This document shows positions 43,712-63,626 of a DNA stretch of 64,000 nt, one piece after another (within the stretch, counting starts at the first letter, position 1; every line of letters begins with the position of its first letter). This DNA comes from an uncultured cyanobacterium (GTDB taxonomy: Bacteria; Cyanobacteriota; Cyanobacteriia; Phormidesmidales; Phormidesmidaceae): positions 384,001-448,000 of the forward strand of contig CAWBZI010000002.1 in assembly GCA_963793265.1 (NCBI GenBank). The letters are read 5' to 3'. The notes under the pieces are model-generated. The model was not told the origin of the DNA. It saw nothing but the letters and a program-made list of their open reading frames with translations, and did not search any database. A program made the translations under genes and the position numbers.

Positions 43712-45369
43712 GACGATTGGCCTCCCCGCTGCTTCAGATAGTCTTGTAAGGAGAGCGACGGCTGACGCTGTTTTCTGCGAGACGGTTTGGGCGATGGCTC
43801 AGGCGCAGTTACGCTCACCTCAATTCGCCCAATTGTGACTTTTACGGGGGGAGCGTCTGCTTTGTTGTGGGGGGGAAAGGTAGGTGATCGCTTTGAAACA
43901 GCAGTGAAGAGAGAATTGACTTCAGTGGTTGTGGCTGTATAGGGCTGTATGGCTTGTGGAAGGGAAAGTGTGGGTTGGTGAGTAGGGGATTGTGGCTGAA
44001 GTGGGGGAGTGGGGGCGGGCGATCGCGCTAAAGATTGAGCGCGGTTGGCCTGAAGGCGGATAGCCTGAAGGTGTAGAGGAGAGGGAGCTAAGAGATTGTT
44101 TGCAGTTAAAAGAGCGTTCATTGTCTCTGACGAAGGTTGAGACGTAGGGTTAATAGCTGATGAGCGGGTTACTACTGCTTTCGGCGGCTCATCTGTTGGT
44201 TTTTGGTGCAAAGCTGCCGCAGATTCTAGGATTTTAGGATTAGAGTCTATCTCTATCGGCGTAGCAGGCTGCGGCAAACCGCTCAGTCTGGAAGTGTCTG
44301 GGTGAGCAGTTTGCGGCTGAGAAGTCTGCGGCTGAGAAACTAATGATTGAGCAATCGACGGCTGAGCAACTGATGGCTGAATAACTGAGGGTCGAATAGC
44401 TGGCGGCTGAATAACTGACGACAGTTGAGCAACTATTGGCTGAACAACTGGCGGCTGAGCAGTGGTAGGAGCAACTGACGATTGAATAACTGGTGGTTGA
44501 GCAACTGACGATTGAGCAGTTGTCGGCCGCTCAACTGGCGGCTGAGCGGCCGTAGGAGTAATCTCAACCTTGCAAAAGTCCTGACCAGGGCTATCGCTAC
44601 CGATACCTAAATCCGATTGTGTGCGATCTGTCTTCACTACTTGATCTGACTCTGTTCTATTGCTACTAATTACTGAGCCCTCTTGTGGTGGAGCCATCCT
44701 GTTCGACTGGGCGGAGTTAGGTAGTATTGGGCGATCGCTAGTTGTTTTCACCGCTGAATCATCTAAGCCGGGCTGCTCAGAAATCAACTGTTTCGGCACC
44801 ACCTGTTCAGATGCTATTTGAGGTGTCATTCGTTCAGAAAGCTGATGTTCAAAAAGCACTTGCTCAGACGATACTTGCCCAGCAGATAGCTGGCCAGAAG
44901 ATCTTCGTTCAAAATCCCCCCTTTCAAAAGATCGCGGCCTTCCCTCCTCTCCTTCAGATCCTCCGGCCCCCTTCTCCCCTCGGGAGAAGGGCTGGGGATG
45001 AGGGCTCGACATATCCATAACCGCTCGACCAGACCGATCAGCAGACGGCACGGCAGAAAAAATATCAGCAACCGTTAAAGCCGGTTGCTCCGACAATGAT
45101 TCTGAAACCAGTAAATCTACTTCAGACGCATCAATAAACGGTTGCTGTGAAGATATTCGCTGCGGTGATGATAGGGAGCTTGATGCTGACAAACCAAACG
45201 TTGCAGATTCAGTTGAAGAGCCAAAGACTCCCAAAGAACTAGCAGGTGGCGGAACTTTCGAGTCGGCCAGCAACGGTTCTTCCGATGAAAACACACCAGG
45301 TACAGCGGGCCAAATGCCAACAGGCCCCACCCAAGTTCGCTCTATCAACTGTGGTAGATAGTCATTCAT
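43708..45369 (-). CDS. Low-complexity Ser/Pro/Gln-rich CIS protein, candidate tape measure
   Basis: Disordered composition, conserved-looking C-terminal PPVKVTIGRIEV...LSLQDYL; follows the tube and chaperone genes. Confidence 0.6.
   Translation of the reverse strand: MNDYLPQLIERTWVGPVGIWPAVPGVFSSEEPLLADSKVPPPASSLGVFGSSTESATFGLSASSSLSSPQRISSQQPFIDASEVDLLVSESLSEQPALTVADIFSAVPSADRSGRAVMDMSSPHPQPFSRGEKGAGGSEGEEGRPRSFERGDFERRSSGQLSAGQVSSEQVLFEHQLSERMTPQIASEQVVPKQLISEQPGLDDSAVKTTSDRPILPNSAQSNRMAPPQEGSVISSNRTESDQVVKTDRTQSDLGIGSDSPGQDFCKVEITPTAAQPPVERPTTAQSSVAQPPVIQSSVAPTTAQPPVVQPIVAQLSSVIQPPAIRPSVIQPSVAQPSIAQSLVSQPQTSQPQTAHPDTSRLSGLPQPATPIEIDSNPKILESAAALHQKPTDEPPKAVVTRSSAINPTSQPSSETMNALLTANNLLAPSPLHLQAIRLQANRAQSLARSPAPTPPLQPQSPTHQPTLSLPQAIQPYTATTTEVNSLFTAVSKRSPTFPPHNKADAPPVKVTIGRIEVSVTAPEPSPKPSRRKQRQPSLSLQDYLKQRGGQSS
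44967..45004. repeat. Cyanobacterial dispersed palindromic (REP-like) element embedded in a CDS
   Basis: CCCTTCTCCC-ctc-GGGAGAAGGG followed by CTGGGGATGAGGG; encodes PHPQPFSRGEKG on the - strand. Confidence 0.55.
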
Positions 45370-46127
45370 TCTCCGGCCCGATCAACTCGATCTAAATAAA
45401 ACTGTCGTCGCACGCCGCTCATCGCTAAAATATCCGACTCTCGCCAGCCATAGAAGCGAGCCAGTATATGCACTTCTTGCAAAAGCTGCTTCGCCAGGTT
45501 AGTCAGCTCCGCCCAAAAGAAAGAGACAATATCAAACAAACTTTGCCAGCTATGGTCACAGTCCGGGCAAACCAAAGGCATCAACACCTCTGCCTGCGGA
45601 TCGTGTTCTATCATTTGTTCACTAATCTGCATCCGCACCGATCCTGGCAGCGCCTCTATATCCACCGCTTCTCCCTTATATTGGGCTGCTACCAAACAGC
45701 GAGAAAGCAGCTGAGCAGATGATGCTGCAATATCACTTACAGGGGCGATCGCGCCCAAATCATAGCTATTCGGCAGCCGAAACTTAATCTGATAGTCCTC
45801 CTGAACAAAGTCATACACCGCTGCTGTTCCTTCTTCAGCCAGCTCAACAACAGGCTTAGAAAACTGAATATCAGCCACCGACAGCCCAAACTCTAGCTGA
45901 CACTGACACTCGGGGCAGCTTGTCATGCTGTTGAGCTTAGGGCCAAACGTCAGCGATCGCAACTGCAACAGCCCCGCATCCCGCTGCCCCACACTCAGCT
46001 CAGCAAGCTGCACATCACTCCCCTGCGGATAGGCCACACGCAGTAGCAGCAAAGCCTGTTCTAAAGGATGCCGCCGCTTCCCCTGCTCCCAAACGGATAA
46101 AATTTGAGCCGCCGAAAGCTTGCGCAT
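45366..46127 (-). CDS. CIS tail-assembly chaperone / T4 gp26-like protein
   Basis: CPEC and CPDC pairs, FRLPN, EVHILARFYGWRESDILAM. Confidence 0.75.
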   Translation of the reverse strand: MRKLSAAQILSVWEQGKRRHPLEQALLLLRVAYPQGSDVQLAELSVGQRDAGLLQLRSLTFGPKLNSMTSCPECQCQLEFGLSVADIQFSKPVVELAEEGTAAVYDFVQEDYQIKFRLPNSYDLGAIAPVSDIAASSAQLLSRCLVAAQYKGEAVDIEALPGSVRMQISEQMIEHDPQAEVLMPLVCPDCDHSWQSLFDIVSFFWAELTNLAKQLLQEVHILARFYGWRESDILAMSGVRRQFYLDRVDRAGE

Positions 46128-46169
46128 ACAGGATAAGCCCTATGTAGATTGGTTCTAACGCCTTCTCTT

Positions 46170-46700
46170 CTATGCCGGTTCTAAAAACGAAGGCTCCCCA
46201 GGCTCAGCCATATCATAATCTCGCTCCCAGCCCTCATTTTGCAGCGTAATCATCTGGATCGCGACCGCATTCGCATTCGCATCCAGCTCAGGCATCGCCG
46301 TAAATTCCGACACCCAGCAGCGATAGACCTTGTACGAAATCGCCACCTGCCCCGCCTCATTCATCAGCTCGATAATAATGTCTTTGCGAAAGTCTTTTAG
46401 CGACACCTCAGCCCCTAAGCCCGAGCCATAGTTCCACACCTTATTGGCCCACTGCTCAAAATCTCTATCGTGCGTCACCCCGCGCTCCAAAGAGATCGCA
46501 TCATACTTAGTCGGCCCCGGCGAATTACGCTTACTGCTCGGATCGCCTCCTTCTCTATGCTCAATTACCTCAGTCGTTCGCTTCAGCGCCCCCACCTTAC
46601 TTATTCCGGCCACATAGCGACCATCCCACTTCACGCGAAACTTAAAATTCTTATACGGATCAAAACGCTGCGCGTTAACAACAAACTGAGGAGCAGGCAT
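46170..46700 (-). CDS. CIS tail tube protein (T4 gp19-like, Afp1/5)
   Basis: DPYKNFKFRVKWDG, EHREGG, ISLERGVT, RKDIIIEL.NEAG. Confidence 0.95.
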   Translation of the reverse strand: MPAPQFVVNAQRFDPYKNFKFRVKWDGRYVAGISKVGALKRTTEVIEHREGGDPSSKRNSPGPTKYDAISLERGVTHDRDFEQWANKVWNYGSGLGAEVSLKDFRKDIIIELMNEAGQVAISYKVYRCWVSEFTAMPELDANANAVAIQMITLQNEGWERDYDMAEPGEPSFLEPA

Positions 46701-46751
46701 ATTTGAAAATTCTCCAAGATGTAAAAACGATGAATGGTCTAAATTCGATCC

Positions 46752-48314
46752 CTAAGTCGCAATCTCACCCGCAATCTGCTGAAACTTCAAGATCACAAAC
46801 TCCGCAGGCTTCAGCGGCGCATACCCCACAACAATATTCACAATCCCCTGATTAATATCATTCTGCGTCGTCGTCTCCTTATCGCACTTCACAAAGTAAG
46901 CATCTTTAGCCGCCGTTCCCTGAAAAGCACCCTGCCGGAAAAGATTGTTCATAAACGCACCTACGTTCAATCGAATCTGAGCCCAAAGCGGCTCATCATT
47001 CGGCTCAAACACCACCCACTGCGTCCCCCGATACAAACTCTCTTCCAAATACAGCGCCAGCCGCCGCACCGGAATATACTTCCACTCAGAAGCAAGCTGA
47101 TCGTTGCCCTGCAACGTGCGCGCGCCCCATACCACCCGGCCAGCCGCCGGGAAGGCCCGCAAACAGTTAACCCCCAGCGGATTAAGCTGTCCGTTTTCAT
47201 CATCAGTCAGCGGCACGCTAAAGCCCGTTACGCCGTTCAGCGTCGCATCCAAACCAGCAGGCGCTTTCCACACGCCACGCTGCGCATCAGTGCGGGCCAT
47301 CACCCCAGCGATCACACCACAGGGCGCAAACGTTCCCATCTGATTTTCTCTCAGCGCATCCGGCTTTCGCAGCCGAGGAAAGAACACCGCTGCATTCTTG
47401 CTGTTCGTACCCAAAGCACCTGCGCCATCTCTAGCTAATGCAACCGATGTCCAGCTCGAAGGTGGATCAACAATCATCATCGCCCGCCGTTTCTCACAGT
47501 AGGCGGCAGCAGTAGTCACCAGCGGCGACTCAACATCATCACCAGCGTAAGGGGGAATACAAAGTAGATTGAACAGATCGGCTTTTTCAAGCGCAAACAG
47601 TCCTGTCTTTGCGCCCTCTTTGCCCGTACCAGTAAAGTCATTGGTATCAATGCTATCACCGTCTGCGCCAGGCGTTGTCACTGGGCTGCTGGCCGCATCG
47701 TCAGTCCAAATCGTGCTGCTAGCGCCTTCACTGTGTTCATCCGGTCGATTATCACCTGTGTTATCGATTCCGCGTACTAACATAGAACTGTTTTGCAGCA
47801 CAGCATCCACCTGTCGAGCACTGTCTTTTGTTGAGACGTTCTGAAAGGTTTCTGTTACACCTGTTTTGGTATCACGTATTGTCAGGTTAAAAAGATCACC
47901 ATCGTCTAGCCCGTAACGCTCTGCGAGCCCAGGCATGTCAACATGGCTAATGCGCGCGCGTAGGCTGTTTCCCCAAGCCCCAGCAGCAGCAGCGTTCAAA
48001 GCCAGCCCATTAGCATTTAAAGAGGCGGTAGAATTCTCGCCCGTTTTCTCATGAAACACTCTTACTATCACGGCCTGCCCGCCGCCGTTCAAGAAAAAGT
48101 CTTGCACCGCGTAGCCGAGATTGCTCTTACGCCATAGTCCACCAAAAATACGTTCAAAGTCGCCGTAGTTGTTGATAGTAACGGGCTCATCAGTAGGGCC
48201 GCGCAGCGCTCTGCCGATAAAGGCCGTAATCGAAGTAGCTACCCCTGAGATGGTTCTAACGCCGCTGGGCAGCTCTTCTACATAAACACCAGGATAGGTT
48301 GGAGCAGTTGGCAT
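46752..48314 (-). CDS. CIS tail sheath protein (Afp2/3/4-like)
   Basis: PGVYVEE, RGVWKAPAG, VWGARTL, VFEPNDEPLW, APLKPAEFV. Confidence 0.95.
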   Translation of the reverse strand: MPTAPTYPGVYVEELPSGVRTISGVATSITAFIGRALRGPTDEPVTINNYGDFERIFGGLWRKSNLGYAVQDFFLNGGGQAVIVRVFHEKTGENSTASLNANGLALNAAAAGAWGNSLRARISHVDMPGLAERYGLDDGDLFNLTIRDTKTGVTETFQNVSTKDSARQVDAVLQNSSMLVRGIDNTGDNRPDEHSEGASSTIWTDDAASSPVTTPGADGDSIDTNDFTGTGKEGAKTGLFALEKADLFNLLCIPPYAGDDVESPLVTTAAAYCEKRRAMMIVDPPSSWTSVALARDGAGALGTNSKNAAVFFPRLRKPDALRENQMGTFAPCGVIAGVMARTDAQRGVWKAPAGLDATLNGVTGFSVPLTDDENGQLNPLGVNCLRAFPAAGRVVWGARTLQGNDQLASEWKYIPVRRLALYLEESLYRGTQWVVFEPNDEPLWAQIRLNVGAFMNNLFRQGAFQGTAAKDAYFVKCDKETTTQNDINQGIVNIVVGYAPLKPAEFVILKFQQIAGEIAT

Positions 48315-48577
48315 AAAAGTGTCCTCAAAATTAGCAGTTTATTTACAAGGTTCAAATCAAAATGTAGTCAAGGTTGACTGATACCGAACCATCTCAGCTA
48401 TGGCAGCGGTAGTCGCACCGACGAGTTAATATTTTAGAACAACGTCTGATCTACAACAATCTAAACGGCGATCGCACCTTCGCATACAAGCATTCTCAAA
48501 ATTGTTGGAAAACATAACAGAACTAAACGAGTAGGTATTGAAAGCAATAGTCATAAAAAAGCAGGCGTTGTATTCAT

Positions 48578-51500
48578 TTAAGGTTGAGATTCAATTATTT
48601 GCGGCTCTGTTTGTGACTCTGAGGGAACATCAGGACGCTGTGCTAAGCCAAATACTACGGCAATCACTAGGGCGATCGCTAAAAATCCCCACGCCCACAG
48701 CGGCAACCTGCCTTGGCCTTCTCTACGCTCTTGAGCAAACGGAGCGCGTTCGGAAACAGCCGCTGTCGCAGGTGGTTGAGGTTCAGTGACTAAAGTCTGT
48801 ACAGGTCTTGTAGGCTCAGATGCCACAGGTTCAGGGGAAATAGGTTCAGGCGTAGCTGATATAGGCACAACAGGTTCTGGCGATGGCGACCCGTTACCAG
48901 AATTAGACTTGCCCAAACCCGTGCCAACAACAGCAATTGTAAGAGCGGCAAGTCCGATCGGATTGGTGAAGTACTCTAGATGGTTGCAGGCAACCGGCAG
49001 ATGAATAGGCGCAGGCGATCGCCCCTCTGGCACCGCAGTAATACTCTCTACCAACACCGCAATATCATTAGGCTGTCTAAAAAACGGCAGCTCAGCCACT
49101 TTCCCCAATCTACCGAGTAACCGCTGCTTCAAACCCGCCGTTTTATCCTCTGGAATCAAAGACGTATTCCCTACTACCAGCGTATAGGGCACCTTTGGAT
49201 CTTTCGCCTTCGCCAGCTCCGCCAGAAAGTCCGACCCCGGCTGCATCTGATCGAGTGACACATCGATTGTCTCAATCCGCTTCAGCAATCCCTCTAAAAT
49301 TTTCAGCGGCGCAGCCACCAAAGAGAGCCCGTTAATTGCAAAGCTCACGGCGGCAGTAATTCCCGCCTGCATCTGCGGCCATGGCGATCCGTTGTTAGGC
49401 GTTCCTAACATAATTAAATGGTTCACCACCTCACTACCGCCCTCCTGTTCAATAAACCACCGAGACACCAGTCCGCCCATTGAATGCGCAACAATATGTA
49501 CCGTCTTCTGATGGCCTACGCCTAGTCCGACCGCCTCTAGCCGCGCTTTTAGCAATCGGGCGTTGGTGTCAATCGTTGTATTCAAGTTCTCATAGTCAAA
49601 AGCTAGCACCAAATCATACAACTGTCCGATTGGCGTCTTGCTATCTTCTAACGTCGCCACCGCTGACTCCAAACTTGGCAGCATACTTTCTGTATCACCA
49701 AAAATCCCGTGGATATAGATAGCAATATTTTGGGCTTTCGCTACCTTCTCTCTTATCGTTTCAACCGTTCTCTCGTAGTTAACTTTAGCATCTTTCAACT
49801 CTGCAACTGTCAGTAACGGATACTCAAACGACAGGCCAATTGTCTTACTCAGGCTCTCTCCTAGTTTCTTAGTCGCCACCTTTTGAAAAAAGATGCGAAT
49901 AGAACCTGTTACGCTACGTCTACCTTCACTCACGGGCTCAGGAAGTCGCTCAATAACAATCTGAGTTTTCCCCTCTGTTGTTTTGCCATAGCCCAGCGGC
50001 AGGTAGAACTCACCATCGTAGGCAACTGGCAAAATATATTCACCTTCATTCAAAGGCACTTCTGTTTCTATTCGCAGCGGATTCTCAGGCGTGACTGCGG
50101 CTGAATCGCTGACGTTGTTGAGTTCCAGAGCGCTGAGGCCAGGGTCGCTCGCGCGGCTTTGCGCAAATTGAAAAGGCACTGTCTCATTTTGTAAAATTGG
50201 TGGCAAAATTGCGCTACCCAAATCGCGAGTAGACTGTGAGACTGTTGTAAGCCGGACATTTGCACTGAACCGAGAATGCGGCTGAATTTGAACGGTGCTG
50301 TTAACAACAGTAGGTTCAGACTGGCTAATTGGCGTCGATAGCTGAGGGCGCACGAAGGTGAACGCAACTTGGCTGGTCACCCAGTCATCGTAAGCTGTGG
50401 TGTCTTCAGCAAAGCCAATGTCTCGCGTATTGACCCGCTGCATTAGGCGGTTGAGGCTACCGGCAGCAGGCAGCGATCGCATCCCACCCCCACTCGCAGG
50501 CTGTCCCAACTCATCTAACGACATCAAAGTCGGATCGAACTCATCCGTACAGGCGATCGCCTTCAAAATATCCTGACTTTCCGTAATCCCCTGCTGCCAC
50601 AGCACATCTTTAATCGTGCCGTTCAGCGGAGCCCCATTGGCAAACCAGATCTCTTGTTCAGGCAGCAGCCGCGTCAAGCTCACCACGCTATCCGGCTTTA
50701 GCACTACCGCGTTAAAGCGTTCAGTCAAATAAAACAGCGCACAGTAGAGCGTTCTATCACTCGTATTTCGCAGCTTGAGCCGAAAGCGCGGCGGTGTCCA
50801 CGTATCTTGCAAGCGGTTGTGCCGGTAGCTCAAGCGAATCTGAGCGTCTGTTATCTCTGTCGCCTCTTCGTAACTAGGCTCATCACCCGAATAGATCTTG
50901 ATTTCAACCGCGCCTTGAATCTGACTGCTCGCTGGACTTGCCAAATCCGCAATTGTCTTCCAGCGCGCAATATGTTCTAAGTCTTTCACGACTTTTGTCA
51001 CATTCACCGTGTCGTAGCCCGCAACAGCAGTCACCAGCGGACGCTGCTCGGCAACAGAGGTGATCGTATACTCATCGCCCTTTGCCACGACTCGATAGCT
51101 TGCACCTTCTATCTGATCGGTTGCTTGCACATAGAGCGAAGGTCGGTTGCCGGGAGCAGCGATCGTGATCGCCTGTCGTAACATCTCAACCCCCGCCGCC
51201 TCACCTTCTATAAAAATGCTAAGCGGCGGTAGCGGTGATGAAACAACAACTGCTTTAAAAGTCTCCGTAGTCTCAGCAGTCTGAGAAATTACCCCACTAC
51301 CCTCTCTATCCACAATCTGACTGTATTGAGGCAGTACCCGAGTGATATTTACTAAACCTAATGCATTTGAAAAGTCTTTAAGCTGCTCGGCTTGGCTGTC
51401 AAAAGGGAAGAGCGCAAGTACCGTCGATTCCTCACCGACTGCTGATCGGAGGCCGTGAATCGCACCGCCGTCTATTGCCCAGCCATGGTCAGGATGACGA

Positions 51501-52414
51501 CTAGCTGTAAAGTAGGGGTCGCAGGGCGCGATCGCCCCACCTAAAAACGGCATCTCCAAATCTTGCGAATGCGTCGCATCCATCTGCGGAGACTGCGCCA
51601 TTACGCCGCTACGAATCAGCGCATTGGTTCGCTTAAACAAATCTCGATAGCTGAGCTGACCATTCGCTTTATTCAAAGAATCTTGTAAAAAGTAAGAGAA
51701 TGCACCCCGAGCCTTACCGCCACCGTGGTACTCCTTTGCCTCTTCAATATTTTGGCAGGCCGCAAGCACCACATGTCGCCCCGTTGGTGGCAGCTTAATC
51801 GCCATCGGAGACAGGCTCCGGGTTCCCACAGATTCGCCTACCAACGCCTGCGCCGCATCAGCTGACACAATAAAACTCTCTAAAGGGCGCAGGCGCTTGT
51901 CAATCTCCGCTCGGCGCGTCGCCACCTCAGACACCTCTCCCTCGCGCGTACCCGATCCCGAATGGCAGCAGTCCAGCAGCACCGCAATATGCGGCTCATG
52001 ACTATCCACTTCAGAGATAAGCTGAGCCAGCTCTTTATCAGCCAAATCCCAGTGCTGATCGTCTATACGGCTGTCGTAGCACACCAGCGTTTCCATCATG
52101 CGATCGGGCGACACCGGCCAAAAAGGCTCTGGTGCGATCGCCTGTGCCCCATGTCCCGCATAGTAAAACAGCACCACATCGTCCTTACCCGCCAGCGCCA
52201 AATGCTGCCGAAACCCGTCAATAATGCCTTGCCGAGTCGCGCGACTGTCAGTCAGCATCTTCAGCTTCAGCTCAAAATCCTTCTGAGAGACGCGACCCTC
52301 TAAATAAGCCTGCATTCCGCTCACGTCATTCACACACCCTTTTAGCCAGGGAACGCGCGATCGCTTGTCATATTCATTAATGCCCACCAGAAGCGCATAC
52401 AGTTTTTTAGACAT
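48578..52414 (-). CDS. Caspase-family (peptidase C14) protease fused to an alpha/beta hydrolase and a C-terminal TM helix
   Basis: ALLVGINEY, FYYAGHG, LLDCCHSG (His-Cys dyad); later HGIFG, AHSMGGL, GTPNNGS; Pro-rich linker and WAWGFLAIALVIAVVFGL. Confidence 0.88.
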   Translation of the reverse strand: MSKKLYALLVGINEYDKRSRVPWLKGCVNDVSGMQAYLEGRVSQKDFELKLKMLTDSRATRQGIIDGFRQHLALAGKDDVVLFYYAGHGAQAIAPEPFWPVSPDRMMETLVCYDSRIDDQHWDLADKELAQLISEVDSHEPHIAVLLDCCHSGSGTREGEVSEVATRRAEIDKRLRPLESFIVSADAAQALVGESVGTRSLSPMAIKLPPTGRHVVLAACQNIEEAKEYHGGGKARGAFSYFLQDSLNKANGQLSYRDLFKRTNALIRSGVMAQSPQMDATHSQDLEMPFLGGAIAPCDPYFTASRHPDHGWAIDGGAIHGLRSAVGEESTVLALFPFDSQAEQLKDFSNALGLVNITRVLPQYSQIVDREGSGVISQTAETTETFKAVVVSSPLPPLSIFIEGEAAGVEMLRQAITIAAPGNRPSLYVQATDQIEGASYRVVAKGDEYTITSVAEQRPLVTAVAGYDTVNVTKVVKDLEHIARWKTIADLASPASSQIQGAVEIKIYSGDEPSYEEATEITDAQIRLSYRHNRLQDTWTPPRFRLKLRNTSDRTLYCALFYLTERFNAVVLKPDSVVSLTRLLPEQEIWFANGAPLNGTIKDVLWQQGITESQDILKAIACTDEFDPTLMSLDELGQPASGGGMRSLPAAGSLNRLMQRVNTRDIGFAEDTTAYDDWVTSQVAFTFVRPQLSTPISQSEPTVVNSTVQIQPHSRFSANVRLTTVSQSTRDLGSAILPPILQNETVPFQFAQSRASDPGLSALELNNVSDSAAVTPENPLRIETEVPLNEGEYILPVAYDGEFYLPLGYGKTTEGKTQIVIERLPEPVSEGRRSVTGSIRIFFQKVATKKLGESLSKTIGLSFEYPLLTVAELKDAKVNYERTVETIREKVAKAQNIAIYIHGIFGDTESMLPSLESAVATLEDSKTPIGQLYDLVLAFDYENLNTTIDTNARLLKARLEAVGLGVGHQKTVHIVAHSMGGLVSRWFIEQEGGSEVVNHLIMLGTPNNGSPWPQMQAGITAAVSFAINGLSLVAAPLKILEGLLKRIETIDVSLDQMQPGSDFLAELAKAKDPKVPYTLVVGNTSLIPEDKTAGLKQRLLGRLGKVAELPFFRQPNDIAVLVESITAVPEGRSPAPIHLPVACNHLEYFTNPIGLAALTIAVVGTGLGKSNSGNGSPSPEPVVPISATPEPISPEPVASEPTRPVQTLVTEPQPPATAAVSERAPFAQERREGQGRLPLWAWGFLAIALVIAVVFGLAQRPDVPSESQTEPQIIESQP

Positions 52415-52460
52415 AGCTAATCAACAAAGAGAGAGTCATATTATCTCAGACGCAGAAGTC

Positions 52461-53345
52461 CTAAGCATTACTTGCCGTCAGCAGCAGCGGCAGCGTATCT
52501 TCATCCACCACGCCGCTCACATTCACGCCTGCTTTCTCCTGAAACGCTTTCACCGCCCTCTCAGTGTCTATGCCAAACACGCCATCTACATCCACCGCAA
52601 CGCCCGCCTTCACTAGCATCGCCTGCACCTCCTCAACTCTCTGACCCTGCATATACGGCGACACCAGCTTCAAATATCCCGTATCAGACGGCGTAAACGT
52701 CGGCGCAGCCACATTCGGCCCAAGCTGAAAACGCACGTGAATATGATCGTCATGCCCCGCATGGTACTGCACGCCTTTAACATTGCCGTCGTTAAATAAA
52801 ATCACGCGAGGGGGCAGCACCGGATTGTTGGTAATTAGGCTTATAAACGCCTGCGTCAGCTCGCGCGAGTAGTTCCCGGCTCGCCAGTTAGAAGGCTCTT
52901 CTCTGCCATTATTCGTCACCAGGCTAAAATCCACATCGACGCCCTCCTCATGAGACGCATGACGCGGCGTATCTCCCCCATTTGGCAAGCTAATATCGCC
53001 TACCCCAATACGCGGCGCGTTGGGATGCTTTTTAGCCCACTGCTCGCAGATATGGACGATCGCTTGAATCGTGCTAGACCGTCCGTAGTGATGCTGACCG
53101 TCATTGTCGTAGCCGTAACACTCATAGCCAGGCCCGTCAAAAGGCAGCTTCGTAAACAGCGCCCGACTATCGCTATTGAGAATTTCTAGCTCAGACTCGG
53201 TAAATTGAACATCCGCAGTACAGGTGATGCCATGCTGATGTTCCTGCCTAGAGGCGGCAGCAGCTAGGCTTCGAGGAGACAACTTTTGTTTGATAGCGTT
53301 CACGACGTTCCCCTTAAGTTTGATCTCAAGTCGTGCAAACATCAT
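52461..53345 (-). CDS. MepA-like murein endopeptidase with C-terminal peptidoglycan-binding domain
   Basis: GDISL.NGG...HASHEEGVDVD...HDDHIHV zinc ligands; VDGVFG..TERAVKAFQ PG-binding repeat. Confidence 0.85.
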   Translation of the reverse strand: MMFARLEIKLKGNVVNAIKQKLSPRSLAAAASRQEHQHGITCTADVQFTESELEILNSDSRALFTKLPFDGPGYECYGYDNDGQHHYGRSSTIQAIVHICEQWAKKHPNAPRIGVGDISLPNGGDTPRHASHEEGVDVDFSLVTNNGREEPSNWRAGNYSRELTQAFISLITNNPVLPPRVILFNDGNVKGVQYHAGHDDHIHVRFQLGPNVAAPTFTPSDTGYLKLVSPYMQGQRVEEVQAMLVKAGVAVDVDGVFGIDTERAVKAFQEKAGVNVSGVVDEDTLPLLLTASNA

Positions 53346-53506
53346 ATGAAGACAATGCTTGTGGCTACTTCCACATCTGGAAAATATATAAAAAGCGCTA
53401 CAAAACTATAGCAAGTAGGCTGACATGCAGTTACTTAGGTTGAGGTATCGTAAATCTGTCCAGGCTTTACTTGAAGCCCATCACGTTTCTACTGCAAAAA
53501 TCGACT

Positions 53507-55597
53507 ATGACTGACCCTACTTCTACTTCGCTTCAGCCGCCCGTTGCACCACAGCGGCCTAAAACGCTCATCACGCACGGCGACGAGCGAGTAGATCCTT
53601 ACTTTTGGCTAAGCGATCGCGACAACCCCGAAGTGATTGACTATCTCAAGACAGAGAACGCCTACACCGAAGCTAAAACAGAGCACACCAAAGCCCTGCA
53701 AAAGACACTCTACGATGAAATGCTCGGTCGCATTCAAGAAACCGATCTCTCAGTACCCTATCGCTACGGCGACTACTATTACTACTCACGCACAGAAGAA
53801 GGCAAAGCCTACGGGTTTCTATGTCGTAAAAAAGGCTCGCTCGAAGCAGATGAAGAAGTGTTGCTAGATGAGAACGCTCTGGCTGAAGGCTATGATTTTT
53901 TCTCGTTAGGAGACTACGAGATTAGCCCCGACCAAAAGCTGTTAGCCTATGCCACCGATACCCAGGGTAACGAGCGCTACACGCTTGTATTCAAGACAAT
54001 TGAAACAAATCAGCACTTTGACGAAAAAATCTCGGACATCAGCGGCGTAGTGTGGGCCAACGATAATAAAACGCTATTTTACCTACGGCTAGACGAAGCC
54101 CATCGGCCGTATCAGGTATGGCGACATCAGCTCGATACTTCGCCCGATACGGACGTGCTGATCTATGAAGAAACTGATGAAGCCTTTTACTTAGATCTCG
54201 ATGTAACCCGCAGCGAAGCCTACATTTTGCTCAGCGCTGAGAGTAAAATCACGTCCGAAGTGCGTTTTTTAAACGCCAATGAGCCCGGCGGTGAGTTTCG
54301 CACGATTCACCCACGTGAGAAAGGCATAGAGTACGGCGTTGAGCACCATCCTGGCACGAATGCCCAGACGGACACCCAGAGCGATCGCTTCTACATCATC
54401 ACCAACGATGAAGCCATCAACTTTAAGCTGATGGCAGCGCCGACAAGCGATCCGAGTAAATCTAACTGGAAAACAGTCGTTCCCCATCGAGAAGACGTAA
54501 TGCTTTCGGGTATAGATGTCTTCAAAGATTATCTTGTATTCTACGAAAGAGAGAAAGGACTGCCTACCATTCGGCTGCAAGAGCTTTCTACCGGCAGCAT
54601 CAAAAAGATAGACTTTCCAGAACCGACCTACTTTGTCATGGGCACCTCTATGCCCGAGTTCGATACAACAACCTTGCGATTTCGCTATAGCTCACTGGTC
54701 ACACCGACCTCAGTGTTTGACTACGACATGAATACGCATCAGCGCGTGCTTAAAAAGCAGCAGCCCGTGCTCGGCGGTTTTGACCCAGATGGCTATGCGA
54801 GCGAGCGTCTGATCGCCACCGCGCCAGATGGCGTTGAGGTGCCGATTTCTTTGGTCTACAAAAAAGATATTTCTCTCGACACGACCAATCCCATGCACCT
54901 GACGGGATATGGTTCTTACGGCTATCCTTATCCCGTGACGTTTTCGGCGTATCAGCTTTCGCTTTTAGATAGAGGGGTGGTGTGTGCGATCGCTCACATT
55001 AGAGGCGGCGGTGAAATGGGCCGCAAATGGTACGAAGACGGCAAGTTCTTAAACAAAAAGAACACCTTCACCGACTTTATCGCTTGCGCCGAGCATTTAA
55101 TCGAACAAAAATGGACAAGCCCTGAGCAGCTTGCAATTTCGGGCGGTAGTGCAGGTGGGTTGCTGATCGGGGCCGTGGTGAATGAAAGACCAGAGCTGTT
55201 TAAAGTTGCGATCGCCCAAGTCCCCTTCGTCGATGTCGTCACCACCATTCTCGATCCTAATCTGCCGCTCTCAGTCATTGAGTGGGACGAATGGGGCAAC
55301 CCCAACGAGCCCGAATTCTATCAATACATGAAATCATATTCTCCCTACGACAATGTGAAAGCTCAGGACTACCCAAATCTGTTGATTACCGGCGGGCTCA
55401 ACGACCCTCGCGTCTCATACTGGGAGCCCGCAAAGTGGACAGCTAAGCTCCGCGCTACCAAAACAGACCAGAACCGACTACTGCTCAAAACCAACATGGG
55501 CGCAGGCCACAGCGGCGCATCAGGCCGCTACGAGCGCATTAAAGAATTTGCGTTTGACGACGCCTTTTTACTGGACGCGTTAGGACTAGGAGGATAA
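53507..55597 (+). CDS. ptrB: Oligopeptidase B (S9A)
   Basis: HGDERVDPYFWL, GYGSYG, RGGGEMG, GGSAGG, NDPRV.YWEPAKW, GHSG. Confidence 0.92.
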   Translation: MTDPTSTSLQPPVAPQRPKTLITHGDERVDPYFWLSDRDNPEVIDYLKTENAYTEAKTEHTKALQKTLYDEMLGRIQETDLSVPYRYGDYYYYSRTEEGKAYGFLCRKKGSLEADEEVLLDENALAEGYDFFSLGDYEISPDQKLLAYATDTQGNERYTLVFKTIETNQHFDEKISDISGVVWANDNKTLFYLRLDEAHRPYQVWRHQLDTSPDTDVLIYEETDEAFYLDLDVTRSEAYILLSAESKITSEVRFLNANEPGGEFRTIHPREKGIEYGVEHHPGTNAQTDTQSDRFYIITNDEAINFKLMAAPTSDPSKSNWKTVVPHREDVMLSGIDVFKDYLVFYEREKGLPTIRLQELSTGSIKKIDFPEPTYFVMGTSMPEFDTTTLRFRYSSLVTPTSVFDYDMNTHQRVLKKQQPVLGGFDPDGYASERLIATAPDGVEVPISLVYKKDISLDTTNPMHLTGYGSYGYPYPVTFSAYQLSLLDRGVVCAIAHIRGGGEMGRKWYEDGKFLNKKNTFTDFIACAEHLIEQKWTSPEQLAISGGSAGGLLIGAVVNERPELFKVAIAQVPFVDVVTTILDPNLPLSVIEWDEWGNPNEPEFYQYMKSYSPYDNVKAQDYPNLLITGGLNDPRVSYWEPAKWTAKLRATKTDQNRLLLKTNMGAGHSGASGRYERIKEFAFDDAFLLDALGLGG

Positions 55598-56230
55598 AGA
55601 GCGCGCCCTTGAATATGCGTTTTTAGTGTTAATGTCTATCAATACTTCGGGCGTTGCAAATTCGACCTTTCTAATTTTAGACTGTCGTTTTCGCACAATC
55701 TCTCGCAGTCCTAAGCTCGAATCGCTAATCTGTTTAAGATCGGGGAATAGGTGATGAGAGAACAATAGCGGATGGCCTAATTTCCCTTGATAGCAAGGTG
55801 CCGTAATCAGGGCTGATTCTCGATAATGCGTTTTTAGTAACGTGCGGTAGACGCTGGCCGGACGGGGCTGATCAACAGCCGATACGGTGAGCGTCGAGAA
55901 TTTAGCGGGAAGCATTTTTAGCCCCGTTAGGATCGAGCTGGTTTTGCCGCGATCGCTATTCCAATTAACCACAGCCCGGCTCCCCAAAGGGCAGTCTGTA
56001 TGGCGATGAGCGTTGTGCGCACCCAAAACAACTAATGGTGTAATATTGGCCTGCAAAAATTGCTCGCACTGGTAGCGAAGCAGCGTTTGATGGCCGTGCC
56101 AGAGCAGCGTTGTTTTACAAACGCCCATGCGAGTAGAAAGACCGGCAGCTAGGACGATAGCGAAATCTTGGTTGTCTGGCGGTTGATCTGGCGGTTGATC
56201 TGGCAGTTGATCTGGCAGTTGATCTGGCAT
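55586..56230 (-). CDS. mocA: Molybdenum cofactor nucleotidyltransferase (MocA/MobA-like)
   Basis: IVLAAGLSTRMG, VDQP, GHP, DIN; located in the xdh cluster. Confidence 0.75.
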   Translation of the reverse strand: MPDQLPDQLPDQPPDQPPDNQDFAIVLAAGLSTRMGVCKTTLLWHGHQTLLRYQCEQFLQANITPLVVLGAHNAHRHTDCPLGSRAVVNWNSDRGKTSSILTGLKMLPAKFSTLTVSAVDQPRPASVYRTLLKTHYRESALITAPCYQGKLGHPLLFSHHLFPDLKQISDSSLGLREIVRKRQSKIRKVEFATPEVLIDINTKNAYSRARSLSS

Positions 56231-57270
56231 GGGTTAGGGCTGCTGCAAGCGTGGATCTTTGAGAGCGCTTTAGTGGGCGTGACGCGATCGCAAAGCGACA
56301 ACCCCGTCCCCCCGCGACGAACCTTAATCAGTTCTGCGCAGATACTAACGGCGATTTCTGACGGCGACAGTGCGCCAATATCCAAACCAATCGGGGCGTG
56401 AAAGTGAGCTGGTTTTTCTATTGATATGCCCTCATAATTAAGCGCCTGGTGGATTAGGCGGATGCGCTTTTGACTGCCAATAGCACCGATATATTGATAG
56501 GCTAACGGCCTGCGTAAAATCGTTTTCAGCGCTTCAACGTCCTGTAAAAATCCTCTTGTGACAAGCGCGATGTAGATCTGAGGGTGAGTGGCGAGCCGGT
56601 CTAAAGCCTCAGCCATAGAGTCAGATAGCAGCATTGCCTGTGGAAATCTTTGACCAGTCACAAATTCAGAGCGATCGTCCTGTACGGCTATTTGGAAACC
56701 AGAAAAGCTAGCAATTTGTGCAAGGGCAACAGCCACATGCCCCCCGCCTACGATGAGTAAAACGGGCGGAGGCTGGATAACTTCGACAAAAGAATTGTCA
56801 TCTGACATGAGGGATTGATGTTCTTCCATGAGATAGGGCTGGCAAGACTCTCTCAAAGAGGTGATGTTGTTACACGCAAGCGGCGTGATTAATCTGCCTG
56901 ATTTTCCCGAATTGAACAAATCTAGAATTTGCTCGACTAGGGCGATCGCCGCCCATCCCGCCCATCGCTCTAACCATACTTGCACCCTGCCGCCACACAC
57001 ACCCTGACTATCTCTTCCCGGCGCACCGGTCAGGTCAATATCAACCAAACGCTTCTCACCATCGACCATCGTCAAGGCTTGTTCAATCACTTTTCCTTCA
57101 CCCGCACCACCGCCCACCGTGCCGATAATACCGCCGTCTGCACATATCGCCATTTTTGCCCCAATCTCTCTAGGTGCAGACCCTGTTGTTGAAACCACTG
57201 TGGCGAGCACGACAGAATTCTGGACTAAGGCAGTCTTGAGCTGTTGATAGAAGTGTTGGGTATTAGTCAT
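56149..57270 (-). CDS. xdhC: XdhC/CoxI family xanthine dehydrogenase accessory protein
   Basis: GSAPRE.GAKM, GTVGGG, VCGG, VGGGHVA, YIGAIGS, APIGLDIGA. Confidence 0.9.
   Translation of the reverse strand: MTNTQHFYQQLKTALVQNSVVLATVVSTTGSAPREIGAKMAICADGGIIGTVGGGAGEGKVIEQALTMVDGEKRLVDIDLTGAPGRDSQGVCGGRVQVWLERWAGWAAIALVEQILDLFNSGKSGRLITPLACNNITSLRESCQPYLMEEHQSLMSDDNSFVEVIQPPPVLLIVGGGHVAVALAQIASFSGFQIAVQDDRSEFVTGQRFPQAMLLSDSMAEALDRLATHPQIYIALVTRGFLQDVEALKTILRRPLAYQYIGAIGSQKRIRLIHQALNYEGISIEKPAHFHAPIGLDIGALSPSEIAVSICAELIKVRRGGTGLSLCDRVTPTKALSKIHACSSPNPCQINCQINCQINRQINRQTTKISLSS
56181..56228. repeat. 4x 12-bp tandem repeat in the xdhC/mocA overlap
   Basis: (G/A)GTTGATCTGGC x4 plus a degenerate copy at 56170-56180. 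Confidence 0.9.
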
Positions 57271-57294
57271 GGGATATTGGGTGATAGATAGCGC

Positions 57295-60066
57295 CTAATT
57301 GTCTGATAGCGCCTGCCATACCCGCTCTGGAATCATCGGAAGCTGCCTGAGCCTAGCGCCAGTCGCCCCTGCAACAGCATTAGCGATCGCAGGGGCAATA
57401 CAGTTCGTCCCAATCTCACCAATTCCTTTAGCACCAAACGGCCCATACGGATCGGCATGCTCTACTAAAAAAACGTCTAGCGGCGGCACATCTGTCGCCG
57501 CTGGAATCCGATAAGTCCGCAGGCTAGGGTTCAAAATTCTACCCTGTTCATTAAAGCGAAGTTCTTCAGTTAGCGCATACCCCAGGCCCATCACGAGCCC
57601 GCCCACCGCCTGCCCCTGACAGATTCGCGGATTAATTGCGGTGCCAATATCCACCGCTTCCGCGCAGCGCAACACGGTAATGCGGCCTGTCTCGGTGTCT
57701 ACTTCTACTTCTGCGCCTAAAAATGCAAATGTGAGAGAGGCGCGATCGCTGCTATATTCCAACTCTATCGATAGAGAGTCTCCTTGTTTCTCAGCGGCTT
57801 GAGCGAGCTGCAATAGCGTTACTTTAGCCGTTGAGCTGCATACCCCATAATTGTCTATCTCTAAATCTTCTACAGGTGCCTCTAAAAGTTTGGCCGCGAC
57901 CTTGAGCAGTCGAGTACGCAGCTTTTGAGCCGCCAGGTTGACCGCCTGGCCAGAGATAAAGGTAGTTGCAGAGGCATAAGAGCCCGCATCAAAAGGCGTG
58001 TGATGGGTGTCTGCGCTCACTAGCTCTATTTTCTCTACGGTGGTTGTCAGCACATGCGCCGCTATCTGACGAAGAGAGGTATCTGAGCCCGTACCCACAT
58101 CTACCGAGCCCGTTCTTAGTTCATACGCACCGCTGGGCAGCAAGGATAGCTTCACGCTCGCTAAGTGAATCTTAGCGAGGCCGCTAGCTTGCATTGTAGC
58201 CGCAAAGCCAATGCCGCGCTTAATCGGATCTGCTGCCCTTAACGCTTCTGTTTTAGTGAGTTCAGCAGGCTGATAATCTAACGCCTGAGTAACTTTCTCA
58301 ATGCATTCATCCAGCGCGTAGCTGCCGATGATGTGAAAGTGTTCTTCTCTACCAATCAGAATCTCGTCTTCAGGCGTAATCAGGTTGTGCTGGCGCAGTT
58401 TGATCGGGTCAATATTCAACTTACTAGCAATCTCATCTAGTTGAGACTCCATTGCAAAGGTGCCCTGCGTGGCTCCGTAGCCCCGAAATGCACCTGCAGG
58501 CATCGTATTGGTATAAACAACCGTGCCTTTGTAAGACTGATGGGCACAGCGGTAGAGCCCTAGAGGAAAACAGCCCGTCAAAAAGGTAACAGTTTCGCCA
58601 TGATTGCCGTAAGCCCCCGTGTTTGAAATGGCTTCCATTTGCTGAGCAACAATTGTACCGTCGTTTTTGACGCCCGTTTTTAACCGAATGCTCATTGCAT
58701 GACGGCTATTTGTGGCGGTAAACTCTTCTTCTCTGGTGAGCTGCCACTGCACCGGCTTGCCTGTTTTCAAGGTAGCTAGCACACACAAATCTTCTGTCAA
58801 AATCTCCTGTTTGTTACCAAAGCCACCGCCGAGCTGAGGCTTATAAACGCGAACTTTTTCTTTGGGCAAATCAAACAGTTCGCACAGCAGCCTTTGACAG
58901 TGAAAGGGAACCTGCGTACTAGAGCGAACCACCAAAATGCCGTTTTCATCGAACCCGCTAATGCAGGCATGAGGCTCCAGGTGAACGTGCTGTACGGCGG
59001 GTAGCGTGTATGTGTTTTCAACTATCAGATCGGCCTCAGCAAACCCGATAGCCAGCTCGCCTTTATCTAAAACTATCTCTCCTGCAATATTACGAGCAGC
59101 GTCATGAATTTGGCTCGACTCTGGCTCATCGTGAATGACGGTTTCTCCTTTCATTGCCTCAACAGGATTAACCACATAGGGCAAAATCTCGTAGTCAACC
59201 TCAATAAGTTCGCAGGCTTTAGCAGCGGTTGCTTCAGTATCAGCAACAACAGCGGCCACGCGATCGCCAATAAATCGCACCTTGTTATCTAACAGATAAT
59301 GGTCTAAAGGATCAGGCACAGGCGCACCGTGTCCGGCAGTGCTATAGGCGCGGCGATCGACATCTTTGTGAGTGAAAACAGCTTCAACACCTGCTAGGGC
59401 CTCGGCTTTAGCCGTGTCGATACTGCGGATGTGGGCATGGGGATGAGGCGATCGCAACACTTTTATATGCAACAGTCCAACCGGCGACCAGTCGGCAGTA
59501 TACACTGGCTTCCCGGTTACCAAATCCGGCCCATCTTGCTTAGGCACATTTTGACCAACCTGCCCCGCCACCTCAGCGGTTGTTTTCGCGAGTGGCTCAC
59601 TACCGCACGCTAAGACACTCTCAACAATAGACTCGTAGCCCGTGCAGCGGCAGAGATTACCTTCCATCTCAGCTTTCACCTCTGCTGCTGTAGCACACGC
59701 TAGCTTACTAGCCGTCATAATCATCCCAGGCGTGCAGTAACCGCACTGAAACCCCTGTTTTTCTAAAAAAGCCTGCTGCATAGGCGATCGCCCGCCCTTC
59801 TCTTCTAAGCCCTCAAGCCCCTCAATCGTTGTTACTTCGCAGCTATCTACTCGCATCGCCGGATAAATGCAGCTATGAATCGGCTTATCATCAACCCATA
59901 CCGTACAGCCCCCGCAGTCGCCCGACTCACAAACGCGATGCACCCCCGCATAGCCTAAAGACCGCAGCAGGCTCAGTAAGCTTGTCCCTGGGCTACAGCT
60001 AATGTCGTGCGTTTGACTGTTGACTTGAAAGTTCAATGAGAGCGTGTCTACTGTGGCACTTTTCAT
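57295..60066 (-). CDS. Xanthine dehydrogenase-family 2Fe-2S plus molybdopterin-binding fusion subunit
   Basis: CESGDCGGC, QCGYCTPG, GNLCRCTGY, GGGFG.K, AFRGYG, GAKGIGE. Confidence 0.92.
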   Translation of the reverse strand: MKSATVDTLSLNFQVNSQTHDISCSPGTSLLSLLRSLGYAGVHRVCESGDCGGCTVWVDDKPIHSCIYPAMRVDSCEVTTIEGLEGLEEKGGRSPMQQAFLEKQGFQCGYCTPGMIMTASKLACATAAEVKAEMEGNLCRCTGYESIVESVLACGSEPLAKTTAEVAGQVGQNVPKQDGPDLVTGKPVYTADWSPVGLLHIKVLRSPHPHAHIRSIDTAKAEALAGVEAVFTHKDVDRRAYSTAGHGAPVPDPLDHYLLDNKVRFIGDRVAAVVADTEATAAKACELIEVDYEILPYVVNPVEAMKGETVIHDEPESSQIHDAARNIAGEIVLDKGELAIGFAEADLIVENTYTLPAVQHVHLEPHACISGFDENGILVVRSSTQVPFHCQRLLCELFDLPKEKVRVYKPQLGGGFGNKQEILTEDLCVLATLKTGKPVQWQLTREEEFTATNSRHAMSIRLKTGVKNDGTIVAQQMEAISNTGAYGNHGETVTFLTGCFPLGLYRCAHQSYKGTVVYTNTMPAGAFRGYGATQGTFAMESQLDEIASKLNIDPIKLRQHNLITPEDEILIGREEHFHIIGSYALDECIEKVTQALDYQPAELTKTEALRAADPIKRGIGFAATMQASGLAKIHLASVKLSLLPSGAYELRTGSVDVGTGSDTSLRQIAAHVLTTTVEKIELVSADTHHTPFDAGSYASATTFISGQAVNLAAQKLRTRLLKVAAKLLEAPVEDLEIDNYGVCSSTAKVTLLQLAQAAEKQGDSLSIELEYSSDRASLTFAFLGAEVEVDTETGRITVLRCAEAVDIGTAINPRICQGQAVGGLVMGLGYALTEELRFNEQGRILNPSLRTYRIPAATDVPPLDVFLVEHADPYGPFGAKGIGEIGTNCIAPAIANAVAGATGARLRQLPMIPERVWQALSDN

Positions 60067-60112
60067 AAGCTATTACTTTTGTTCATTGAGCCTACTTATT
60101 CATAGAGAGTCA

Positions 60113-60955
60113 TCAATATCGACGTTTTCCATCACCGCCCGCGCTCAATTCCGCGATGCCTCGCTGCATCAAAACTCGGGTAATCTGTTGGCGGTATGGC
60201 ATACTCGCGCGCTCATCATTCAGCCAGGACGCTTCAGCAATACCCGCTATTACCTGTTCTGTTATTTGTTCAGGGGTAGGAACTGTCTCAAATTCAATCA
60301 TAAGCGGTGCCTTTAGGCTGCCGCCAACGCCGAACCTAACCCGCCGCGTAGCAGGGTGGTAAGCCGTCACAACAATGGCGATCGCATACCCCGCCGTCCC
60401 TACCGCCATTCGCTTAAAGCTCGTTTGCCACCCCTCTAAATTCTCTCGAAGAACCTTAATTCTTCTCAATACGTCTCCAGGTTGCAATATCGTTTGCTGC
60501 GGTGCTGTCTGAAAATCAACAGCCTCGACAACGTAGGGAGCACCGTTCGGTCGCCAAATTTCGTACTGAGCCTTCAGCGCCACCATCGCGGGGGCAAACG
60601 TACTCGCACTCAGAGCCAAACAGAGATTTCCACCTACCGTCGCCGCATGAGACAGCTTAAAAGAAGCCAGTTCTCTCACCGCATCTTTTAGCGCCTCTGT
60701 CGCGCCCCACGTCTGAGGGAAAGAGAACGCCAGCAAATCATTCTGAATGCCGGTAGCGCCGATAGACAAAGATTCTGAGGTGACCTCTATCTCTGACCAG
60801 TCGAGCGGCTGCATATCGACTAAAGCTGTTACCTGGGGCTGCGCTTCGTTAAATAGCCAAGTCCCGCCCGCTAGCCAGTTCCAGCTAGGCTGCCAGGGCG
60901 ACACTTCGGCGAGCGATCGCGGTCGTAAATAGGTGTCAACACTATGCAAGTCCAT
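60113..60955 (-). CDS. Xanthine dehydrogenase-family FAD-binding subunit
   Basis: WLAGGTW, ATVGGNLC. Confidence 0.88.
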   Translation of the reverse strand: MDLHSVDTYLRPRSLAEVSPWQPSWNWLAGGTWLFNEAQPQVTALVDMQPLDWSEIEVTSESLSIGATGIQNDLLAFSFPQTWGATEALKDAVRELASFKLSHAATVGGNLCLALSASTFAPAMVALKAQYEIWRPNGAPYVVEAVDFQTAPQQTILQPGDVLRRIKVLRENLEGWQTSFKRMAVGTAGYAIAIVVTAYHPATRRVRFGVGGSLKAPLMIEFETVPTPEQITEQVIAGIAEASWLNDERASMPYRQQITRVLMQRGIAELSAGGDGKRRY

Positions 60956-61142
60956 CGCAGATTCATCCTTAAAATCCTATCTTTGGGCGCGAGCCTTTAC
61001 TGTGCAAACTCTCACTATTGTGCTGCGGAATTAATTTGAATACTGTACGCATTGTTGCAGAATTAATTGCCCGCTGTAGATACGTTGGCGCAATATATTC
61101 CACTATGAAATAACAGTATCGCTAAACCTTCAGGCACCTACT

Positions 61143-62585: not shown

Positions 62586-63626
<1,041 letters not shown>

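Follow-up and report, generated by a model that had tools for sequence, protein, structure and literature searches.

In the abstract, results and discussion of Evans et al. 2025 (PMC12642450), a caspase, LcCaspase, is described as activating an alpha/beta hydrolase, LcHydrolase, a stand-alone protein of ~33 kDa that is cut twice internally at R|G and whose product kills E. coli. In the available parts of two earlier papers, caspase-hydrolase pairing was noted (Kaur et al. 2020, PMC7159879) and the nSTAND1 family was named (Kaur et al. 2021, PMC8195603), while the available text of PMC5756287 describes non-metazoan C14 enzymes as favouring Arg or Lys at P1 and MaOC1 as autoprocessing; partial texts of 10.1101/2023.09.22.558884, PMC6403190 and PMC12210884 were also drawn upon. 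The present analysis concerns a 64,000-nucleotide stretch of an uncultured cyanobacterium, hereafter the window (G000:C2:384001-448000; nearest homologs labelled Phormidesmis or cyanobacteria), in which a gene for an M74 murein endopeptidase and a gene for a caspase-lipase protein with a transmembrane (TM) tail lie next to the sheath gene of a contractile injection system (CIS). With moderate confidence, and judging from sequence and model comparisons, this pair is regarded as the effector arm of a cyanobacterial lytic cascade of NOD-like receptor (NLR)-caspase type, operating in conflict or regulated death, and not as a dedicated part of the CIS.

Like LcCaspase-LcHydrolase, as presented in the sections named above, the locus links a C14 caspase to a lipase-like hydrolase, belongs with WD40 (beta-transducin) and STAND sensors, and shows, where cutting is proposed, a conserved Arg with a small residue after it. 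Unlike that module, caspase and hydrolase are fused here into a protein of 1150-1350 amino acids (aa) across homologs, together with ~560 aa of additional domains and, in some members, a TM tail; the motifs precede the hydrolase domain instead of lying inside it; a second caspase is present on the sensor; and a putative peptidoglycan (PG)-hydrolase zymogen is added, a class absent among the effectors in those sections. In its proposed working the system resembles the protease-effector modules, but it fits neither the LcHydrolase type nor a CIS lysis cassette. In the literature searched, whose coverage mostly excluded subscription journals, no description of the combination of caspase-lipase, pro-M74 and sensor was found. 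The two open reading frames (ORFs) and their parts are as follows, in window coordinates:

48578..52414, minus strand: orthocaspase-lipase-TM ORF, 1278 aa
51527..52408, minus strand: C14 caspase-like domain, residues 3-296, with H88/C150 dyad and C27/D30/D148
49835..51526, minus strand: middle region, residues 297-860, beta-rich domains, partly DUF4384-like, with motifs R646, R664, R730, R754 and R833
48905..49834, minus strand: lipase-type alpha/beta hydrolase, residues 861-1170, with S978-D1117-H1145 triad and HG(902-903) oxyanion motif
48644..48700, minus strand: C-terminal TM helix, residues 1239-1257, following a Pro-rich linker, with basic residues N-terminal of the helix
52461..53345, minus strand: M74 murein endopeptidase ORF, 294 aa, Pfam M74 and PG_binding_1
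53163..53303, minus strand: pro-segment, ORF residues 15-61, with conserved Cys42 and an acidic helix, ending DSR|ALF; predicted caspase site R61
52704..53162, minus strand: M74 catalytic domain, with H132-x6-D139 and H201-x-H203, also H129 and H198
52491..52649, minus strand: PG-binding domain, residues 233-285 (PF01471, E 7.8e-15)

The coordinates, strand and spacing of the two ORFs (46 bp from the M74 gene to the caspase-lipase gene, 263 bp from there to the sheath gene) were re-measured and agree with a preliminary description of the window. Its assignment of a MepA-like peptidoglycan hydrolase also holds, the LAS fold and both zinc motifs being intact, as does that of a C14 His-Cys dyad, an AHSMGG hydrolase and a TM anchor in one 1278-aa protein, in which every catalytic residue is conserved.

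Within the 1278-aa protein, Pfam places Peptidase_C14 at residues 6-282 (E 6e-20) and the DUF7379 alpha/beta hydrolase at 899-1066 (E 4e-15). The catalytic residues comprise the dyad H88/C150, S978 within AHSMGG (976-981), D1117 and H1145. Homologs number 847 at E<=1e-20 among 7995 candidates scored. Conservation was assessed on an alignment of 130 sequences (115 of the 120 listed homologs, query included, plus 15 from loci), where D30, D148, D1117 and H1145 are invariant and H88, C150 (97%), S978 and C27 reach at least 90%. The AlphaFold model built on these 130 sequences has a mean predicted local distance difference test score (pLDDT) of 85. Its caspase domain matches 3bij (Z 27.4) and metacaspase 9 (8a53, Z 26.4), with which the GCxND segment aligns, and its lipase domain matches the Streptomyces lipase 5h6g (Z 20.5, root-mean-square deviation (rmsd) 2.7, 216 residues aligned). 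C27, D30 and D148 presumably supply the acidic S1 pocket. A match to the PADLOC caspase model was also obtained (E 4e-41). A single hydrophobic helix (1239-1257, Kyte-Doolittle 2.47) forms the TM tail, which is optional in the family (30 of 79 unfused homologous loci). For the middle region there is only a lead, an Atlas match of 0.92 to a cluster in which 17% of the members have DUF4384; an Atlas search with residues 690-870 gave no usable match. In the available text of PMC5756287 and PMC8283722, cyanobacterial orthocaspases such as MaOC1 share the His-Cys dyad, the acidic pocket residues, an Arg motif past the catalytic Cys, the TM tail and a DUF4384-like accessory region. The words 'hydrolase', 'lipase' and 'PGAP1' do not occur in the main text of the latter, a survey of 473 orthocaspases, so a lipase fusion is not described there.

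What connects this protein to proteolytic gating is a set of seven Arg motifs of the type [TS]R[GSDA]x, spanning residues 157-833 ahead of the hydrolase domain, most of them between caspase and lipase, and conserved in 68-100% of the 130 sequences: R157 96%, R199 68%, R646 92%, R664 100%, R730 95%, R754 100% and R833 96%. R157 and R199 fall in loops of the caspase domain with pLDDT below 50, and the R646 block averages 56. The C14 domain is predicted to cleave after Arg or Lys and to autoprocess, with these motifs as conserved candidate sites.

The neighbouring M74 protein carries a corresponding feature. Peptidase_M74 is found at residues 66-148 (E 2e-12) and PG_binding_1 at 233-285 (E 8e-15), and translation probably starts at the GTG at 53303 (280 aa), since orthologs align from about residue 15. 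The AlphaFold model (pLDDT 90.7) is closest in fold to E. coli MepA (1tzp; Z 13.7, rmsd 3.3, 157 residues aligned), with which it shares the LAS fold and the H-x6-D / H-x-H zinc motifs; across 107 sequences H132 and D139 are invariant, and H129, H198, H201 and H203 reach at least 90%. E. coli MepA is periplasmic. The M74 protein, in contrast to MepA, has no signal peptide (no hydrophobic signal or TM segment in the ORF, maximum hydropathy 1.25), bears a PG-binding domain and a Cys/acidic pro-segment, and scores 44.5 bits against the NCBIfam MepA equivalog (PRK09429), far below its cut-off of 272 bits. Across its subfamily, the pro-segment ahead of the catalytic domain combines an acidic helix with a conserved Cys and the sequence xR[GAS]x[FY]. 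The Cys and xR[GAS] motif occur together in 77 of 83 subfamily members and in none of 179 other matches, and the six misses are two N-terminally truncated proteins, a fusion, a non-member, a protein with wider spacing and another in which Gln replaces Arg. When folded with zinc as a separate chain, the pro-segment docks on the zinc-ligand face with a score of 0.65 (best control 0.01), a mark attained by 116 of 157 solved pairs and 2 of 215 mismatched pairs; the runs share at least 79% of contacts, partner pLDDT is at least 74, and the modelled interface takes in H129, H132, D139, H198, H201, H203 and C42. When M74 genes were collected independently of the caspase, a caspase gene was present no more than 3 kb away from 7 of the 13 that have the pro-motif and from 1 of the 59 that lack it. 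A metagenome scan with the M74 alignment yielded mostly short contigs and M74 genes from outside the subfamily.

The third line of evidence comes from gene partners. Forty-five other genomes of the genus were searched, and 20 hold a caspase-lipase ortholog, with identities from about 60% upward; in 17 of these 20 it is followed directly by a caspase-nSTAND1(-WD40) gene, encoding an NLR-like sensor (exceptions G011, G016 and G049). The M74 gene stands directly upstream of the caspase-lipase gene in 6 of the 45, once across a contig break, and G020 retains a remnant. In a wider tally of 81 distinct full-length loci, 72 offered at least 3 kb downstream or a fusion; congeneric paralogs L049, L069 and L072 dropped out in de-duplication, own-genome loci were left out, and L105, with overlapping ORFs, was counted as having no next-gene sensor. 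Of these 72, 36 have the sensor as the next gene or as a fusion and 46 have it no more than 8 kb downstream; 54 have an nSTAND1 gene when 8 kb of flank in both directions is counted. Fusions also occur, as caspase-lipase-STAND ORFs (L061, 3057 aa; L124, 3238 aa) and as a single protein with C14, nSTAND1, M74, PG-binding and GH19 domains (P0330). The sensors have intact dyads and, in most of those listed, an Arg motif just past the catalytic Cys, commonly STRD[IL]. A caspase-nSTAND1-WD40 protein is therefore the usual partner, in a layout that we take to be Apaf-1-like. This partnership and the enrichment in filamentous cyanobacteria recall Avs and the nSTAND1/NLR-like systems of PMC8195603, insofar as its available text describes them; the present locus differs in that its sensor is missing and that no effector-associated adaptor domain was recognised in it.

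Two variations on this arrangement were observed. A second architecture (L261, L260 and L224) keeps the two enzymes apart, as a caspase of ~700 aa and an LCAT/PGAP1-type lipase of ~490 aa that bears AHSMGG, and this split form adjoins a pro-M74-GH19 gene in L260 and L261. At L054 (G016:C29), the genes for pro-M74-GH19 and for caspase-nSTAND1-WD40 are separated by one for a protein-arginine deiminase; as a speculation, should the caspases cleave after Arg residues, citrullination might prevent or modulate this.

On the favoured reading, the sensor would oligomerise upon its trigger and activate its own caspase by cleavage at STR|D[IL]. The sensor caspase, together with the C14 domain of the caspase-lipase itself, would then cut the 1278-aa protein after its [TS]R motifs and unmask the lipase, which the TM tail would keep on a membrane. 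The M74 enzyme, predicted to be cytoplasmic, would lose its pro-segment to the caspase at DSR|ALF and so expose its zinc site; its latency may depend on Cys42 in what we take to be a form of cysteine switch. Membrane damage by the lipase would give the endopeptidase access to peptidoglycan, so that lysis would proceed without a holin. In this genome, the pair appears to have moved from its usual site, lost its cis sensor and ended beside the CIS, and two intact caspase-nSTAND1-WD40 paralogs, at C2:144.6 kb (1323 aa) and C6:568 kb (1478 aa), could fire it in trans. The domains, intact catalytic residues, conserved gene partners and conserved Arg motifs are direct observations, and they lend support to protease gating, whereas the cleavage, trigger, order of events and outcome are proposed from them.

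Several observations weigh against this reading. The sensor gene is absent from the locus itself; at 18 of the 72 loci, the 8 kb on either side contain no nSTAND1 gene; an M74 gene is found with the caspase-lipase at only 7 of 81 loci; and 6 of 13 pro-M74 genes lack a caspase within 3 kb (two of them on contigs below 4 kb). R61 ranks in the top 1.6% of background arginines, but with so short a motif a protein will often contain one site of this rank by chance, and Arg-motif sites that score equally well, conservation aside, are present in some CIS proteins. In the model R730 is part of a helix and R664 marks the end of one, so both may have a structural role. The docking model concerns one polypeptide cut in two, with a custom alignment, which lies outside the calibration of the tool, and no Cys-Zn contact is listed in it. 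P1 need not be Arg either, as the available text of 10.1101/2021.06.07.447441 reports a Runella caspase that cleaves after Leu.

The missing sensor raises the question of whether the pair is an orphan here, inert or decaying after a rearrangement, with Arg motifs that are structural. The other two copies in the genome are indeed damaged. One lies in a second island (L052/L178, G000:C2:131.6-156 kb) that comprises a frameshifted caspase-lipase paralog, an M15 peptidase, PG-binding/GH19, CHAT-TIR-AAA_35 and WD40 proteins, a ~355-aa gene with an early xRGLL motif and an intact caspase-nSTAND1-WD40 gene. The other (L051, G000:C6:534-538 kb), between a PAP2 gene and thf1, has lost the lipase and kept the TM tail; relatives hold a full-length caspase-lipase at that site. 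Gene shuffling in the genus is heavy, and the place that congeners use most often, flanked by hisD-ADH on one side and a second C14-nSTAND1 gene with sbcC on the other, is empty in this genome. Against decay, neither ORF is truncated or lacks a catalytic residue, two intact sensors exist in trans, and the junction with the sheath gene recurs in a slightly different strain, which makes the orphan explanation quite improbable.

A function in development or stress, such as filament breakage, sacrificial cells or envelope remodelling, in place of defence against invaders, has a small but appreciable chance of being correct. The family is concentrated in filamentous cyanobacteria, many congeners keep it at the fixed site by hisD and sbcC, and stress-induced wall loss in Anabaena is independent of the CIS in the available text of PMC8894136. 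However, a draw of 300 genomes of the phylum, with two candidates scored per genome, found the caspase-lipase in only 10, a patchy presence, and the 80 matches retained of 504 also include distant phyla and a plasmid. The variable WD40 partners, the CHAT, TIR and NACHT neighbours and the PADLOC caspase match fit conflict systems better.

The position of the pair beside the CIS remains to be accounted for, and two further features of the locus are relevant:

48315..48577, no strand: intergenic gap between the sheath and caspase-lipase genes, 263 bp; relatives start a caspase-nSTAND1-WD40 gene here
46752..48314, minus strand: CIS sheath gene (Pfam), first of the neighbouring operon, probably outside the module

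The CIS locus occupies ~17.6-48.3 kb of the window as two convergent arms, and its sheath, the only match in the whole genome, is closest to the solved 9ezm, 8bky and 8bl4, with Anabaena All3325 well behind. The caspase-sheath junction is not an assembly error, because single contigs bridge it in runs X1 (44977-50875, 6 differences) and X2 (45493-49318, 7 differences); both are runs of one study, and X1 may be the source sample. The 263-bp gap has no similar match elsewhere in the genome or in the fetched loci, and no promoter-like or terminator-like site falls inside it in a scan of 46000-54000, which was itself uninformative (4 promoter-like and 8 terminator-like sites against 7.2 and 7.6 in shuffles).

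The preliminary description proposed a protease-gated module for lysis and particle release. Its gating half gains from the conserved pair and from motifs that fit caspase cleavage, but the half concerning dedicated CIS release finds little support. The pair usually lies away from CIS loci, an outcome that the preliminary description had listed among those counting against its proposal. Of 58 other caspase-lipase loci, only 1 has a CIS gene no more than 10 kb away; among 25 loci of this sheath subtype, 23 with at least 1.4 kb upstream, none of the 23 has either gene directly upstream; and a sister sheath in G052 (80% identity) has unrelated genes there. All six congeneric pairs precede a caspase-nSTAND1(-WD40) gene, never a sheath, contrary to what a habitual association with CIS loci would predict, and no CIS genes occur in the flanks of the 20 congeneric orthologs (up to 8 kb, shorter at contig ends). 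G053 (99% complete) and G010 (98% complete), both with the pair, have no sheath match at E<=1e-10, and in the phylum draw, 10 genomes hold the caspase-lipase, 5 this sheath and none both. The ptrB neighbourhood in three relatives contains no caspase, M74 or CIS gene, and five further genomes have no ptrB match.

In favour of the pair having been recruited as the lysis or exposure module of this CIS, co-transcribed with the sheath operon and replacing a holin-endolysin system, are the shared strand, the short gap with no terminator-like site and the lack of a classical holin in the locus. Moreover, 4 of 18 genomes holding both genes have them within 50 kb, caspase-lipase upstream and on the same strand, where 0.35 would be expected (about 3 independent events, P about 0.006), which also speaks against a purely CIS-independent role; the 50-kb window was picked after the data were seen, related genomes are not independent, G052 was left out with its caspase-lipase in fragments, and 6 short-contig loci of 56 were also left out of the underlying neighbourhood survey. 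Two related Nostoc sheath loci have a caspase-lipase and a sensor within 15 kb. In L109/G382 the caspase-lipase, STAND and sheath genes form one run, and the distances are 12-14 kb in G385, 25 kb in G046 and 43 kb in G371. Within the genus, the caspase-lipase co-occurs with the sheath in 8 of 20 genomes, as against 3 of 25 without it (Fisher P 0.04). In G502 (L260/L267/L268/L269, G502:C60), the stretch directly downstream of a complete CIS operon encodes, in the same orientation, pro-M74-PGB-GH19, a caspase of a different family (696 aa), CHAT-NACHT and an LCAT-type lipase.

The simpler cause of this proximity would be the clustering of conflict genes in islands: the G502 genes head a ~35-kb CHAT/WD40/caspase island, so island clustering would account for the excess. 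In the caspase-lipase tree (FastTree), the window protein nests in the congeneric clade, sister to G046 (support 80), and the CIS-adjacent cases fall on separate branches of both this and the sheath tree, which implies repeated juxtapositions and not co-inheritance. Shared regional synteny with G046 was considered and rejected, as the intervening genes map all over the genome and the sheaths lie on different branches. In the available text of PMC8894136, Anabaena ghost cells shed the wall and outer membrane and expose the CIS, and they form in a CIS-minus mutant too. Tailocin release through holin, lysin and spanin (PMC10598620, available text) and Anabaena ghost-cell exposure share with the proposed cascade a membrane breach, wall digestion and the same outcome, but the present system has no conserved CIS linkage, and its sheath is nearer 9ezm, 8bky and 8bl4 than All3325. 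Recruitment as a CIS module is accordingly given a slim chance. The CIS link is probably incidental, although a looser one is kept open because proximity to this CIS subtype recurs above expectation. One such version, which is unlikely, is that a caspase cascade licensing a membrane lipase and a cysteine-switch endopeptidase would be the CIS-independent wall-stripping machinery of ghost cells, recurring beside CIS operons (in this genome, a Nostoc lineage and G502) because it would couple immune sensing to particle exposure or release.

That both proteins are CIS cargo injected into target cells, the other option raised in the preliminary description, is very improbable. The pair adjoins a CIS, and wall hydrolases and lipases are typical antibacterial activities. 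However, no extra leader precedes the caspase fold, whose first residue is 3, and the same holds for orthologs from genomes in which no CIS turned up; the polypeptide has 1278 aa and a TM tail; the M74 leader is conserved irrespective of a CIS; and CIS linkage is rare. A better cargo candidate is a 448-aa eCIS_core (DUF4157) protein (38846-40192, minus strand), at whose matching position G371 has an SLT transglycosylase domain. None of the scanned window ORFs matches a holin family, but one 174-aa ORF (16840-17364, minus strand) has a single strong TM helix and no Pfam or NCBIfam match; among 46 genomes of the genus it occurs only here and in G052, again divergent from the CIS_tube gene, and it may serve this CIS lineage as a membrane anchor or a holin-like partner.

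Other parts of the window were also annotated. A DUF900 alpha/beta hydrolase with a TM insertion (36302-38077, plus strand) ends the baseplate arm, and a homolog lies directly upstream of the G363 sheath; it was rejected as a CIS-specific or module part, since matches occur in 44 of 46 genomes of the genus. A short repeat inside a 553-aa gene (~44960-45008) has 37 blastn matches in the genome, and others lie between CIS genes of G005 and G044. Nonribosomal peptide synthetase genes (7364-15024, minus strand; A-PCP-C-A-methyltransferase and PCP-reductase) adjoin the CIS locus, and 55586-63626 holds a xanthine dehydrogenase-type cluster with XdhC, a MobA-like protein, a purine permease and adenosine deaminase.

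Of the new elements in this proposal, the putative pro-M74 zymogen and the Arg motif common to the proteins lend themselves best to testing. Cyanobacterial orthocaspases are abundant and have few known substrates, and R61 of pro-M74 and the seven Arg motifs of the caspase-lipase are candidates. If the favoured reading is correct, the known protease-effector defence modules would gain a peptidoglycan-hydrolase zymogen and a layout of two caspases, one initiator and one effector, and lysis would have a holin-free route.

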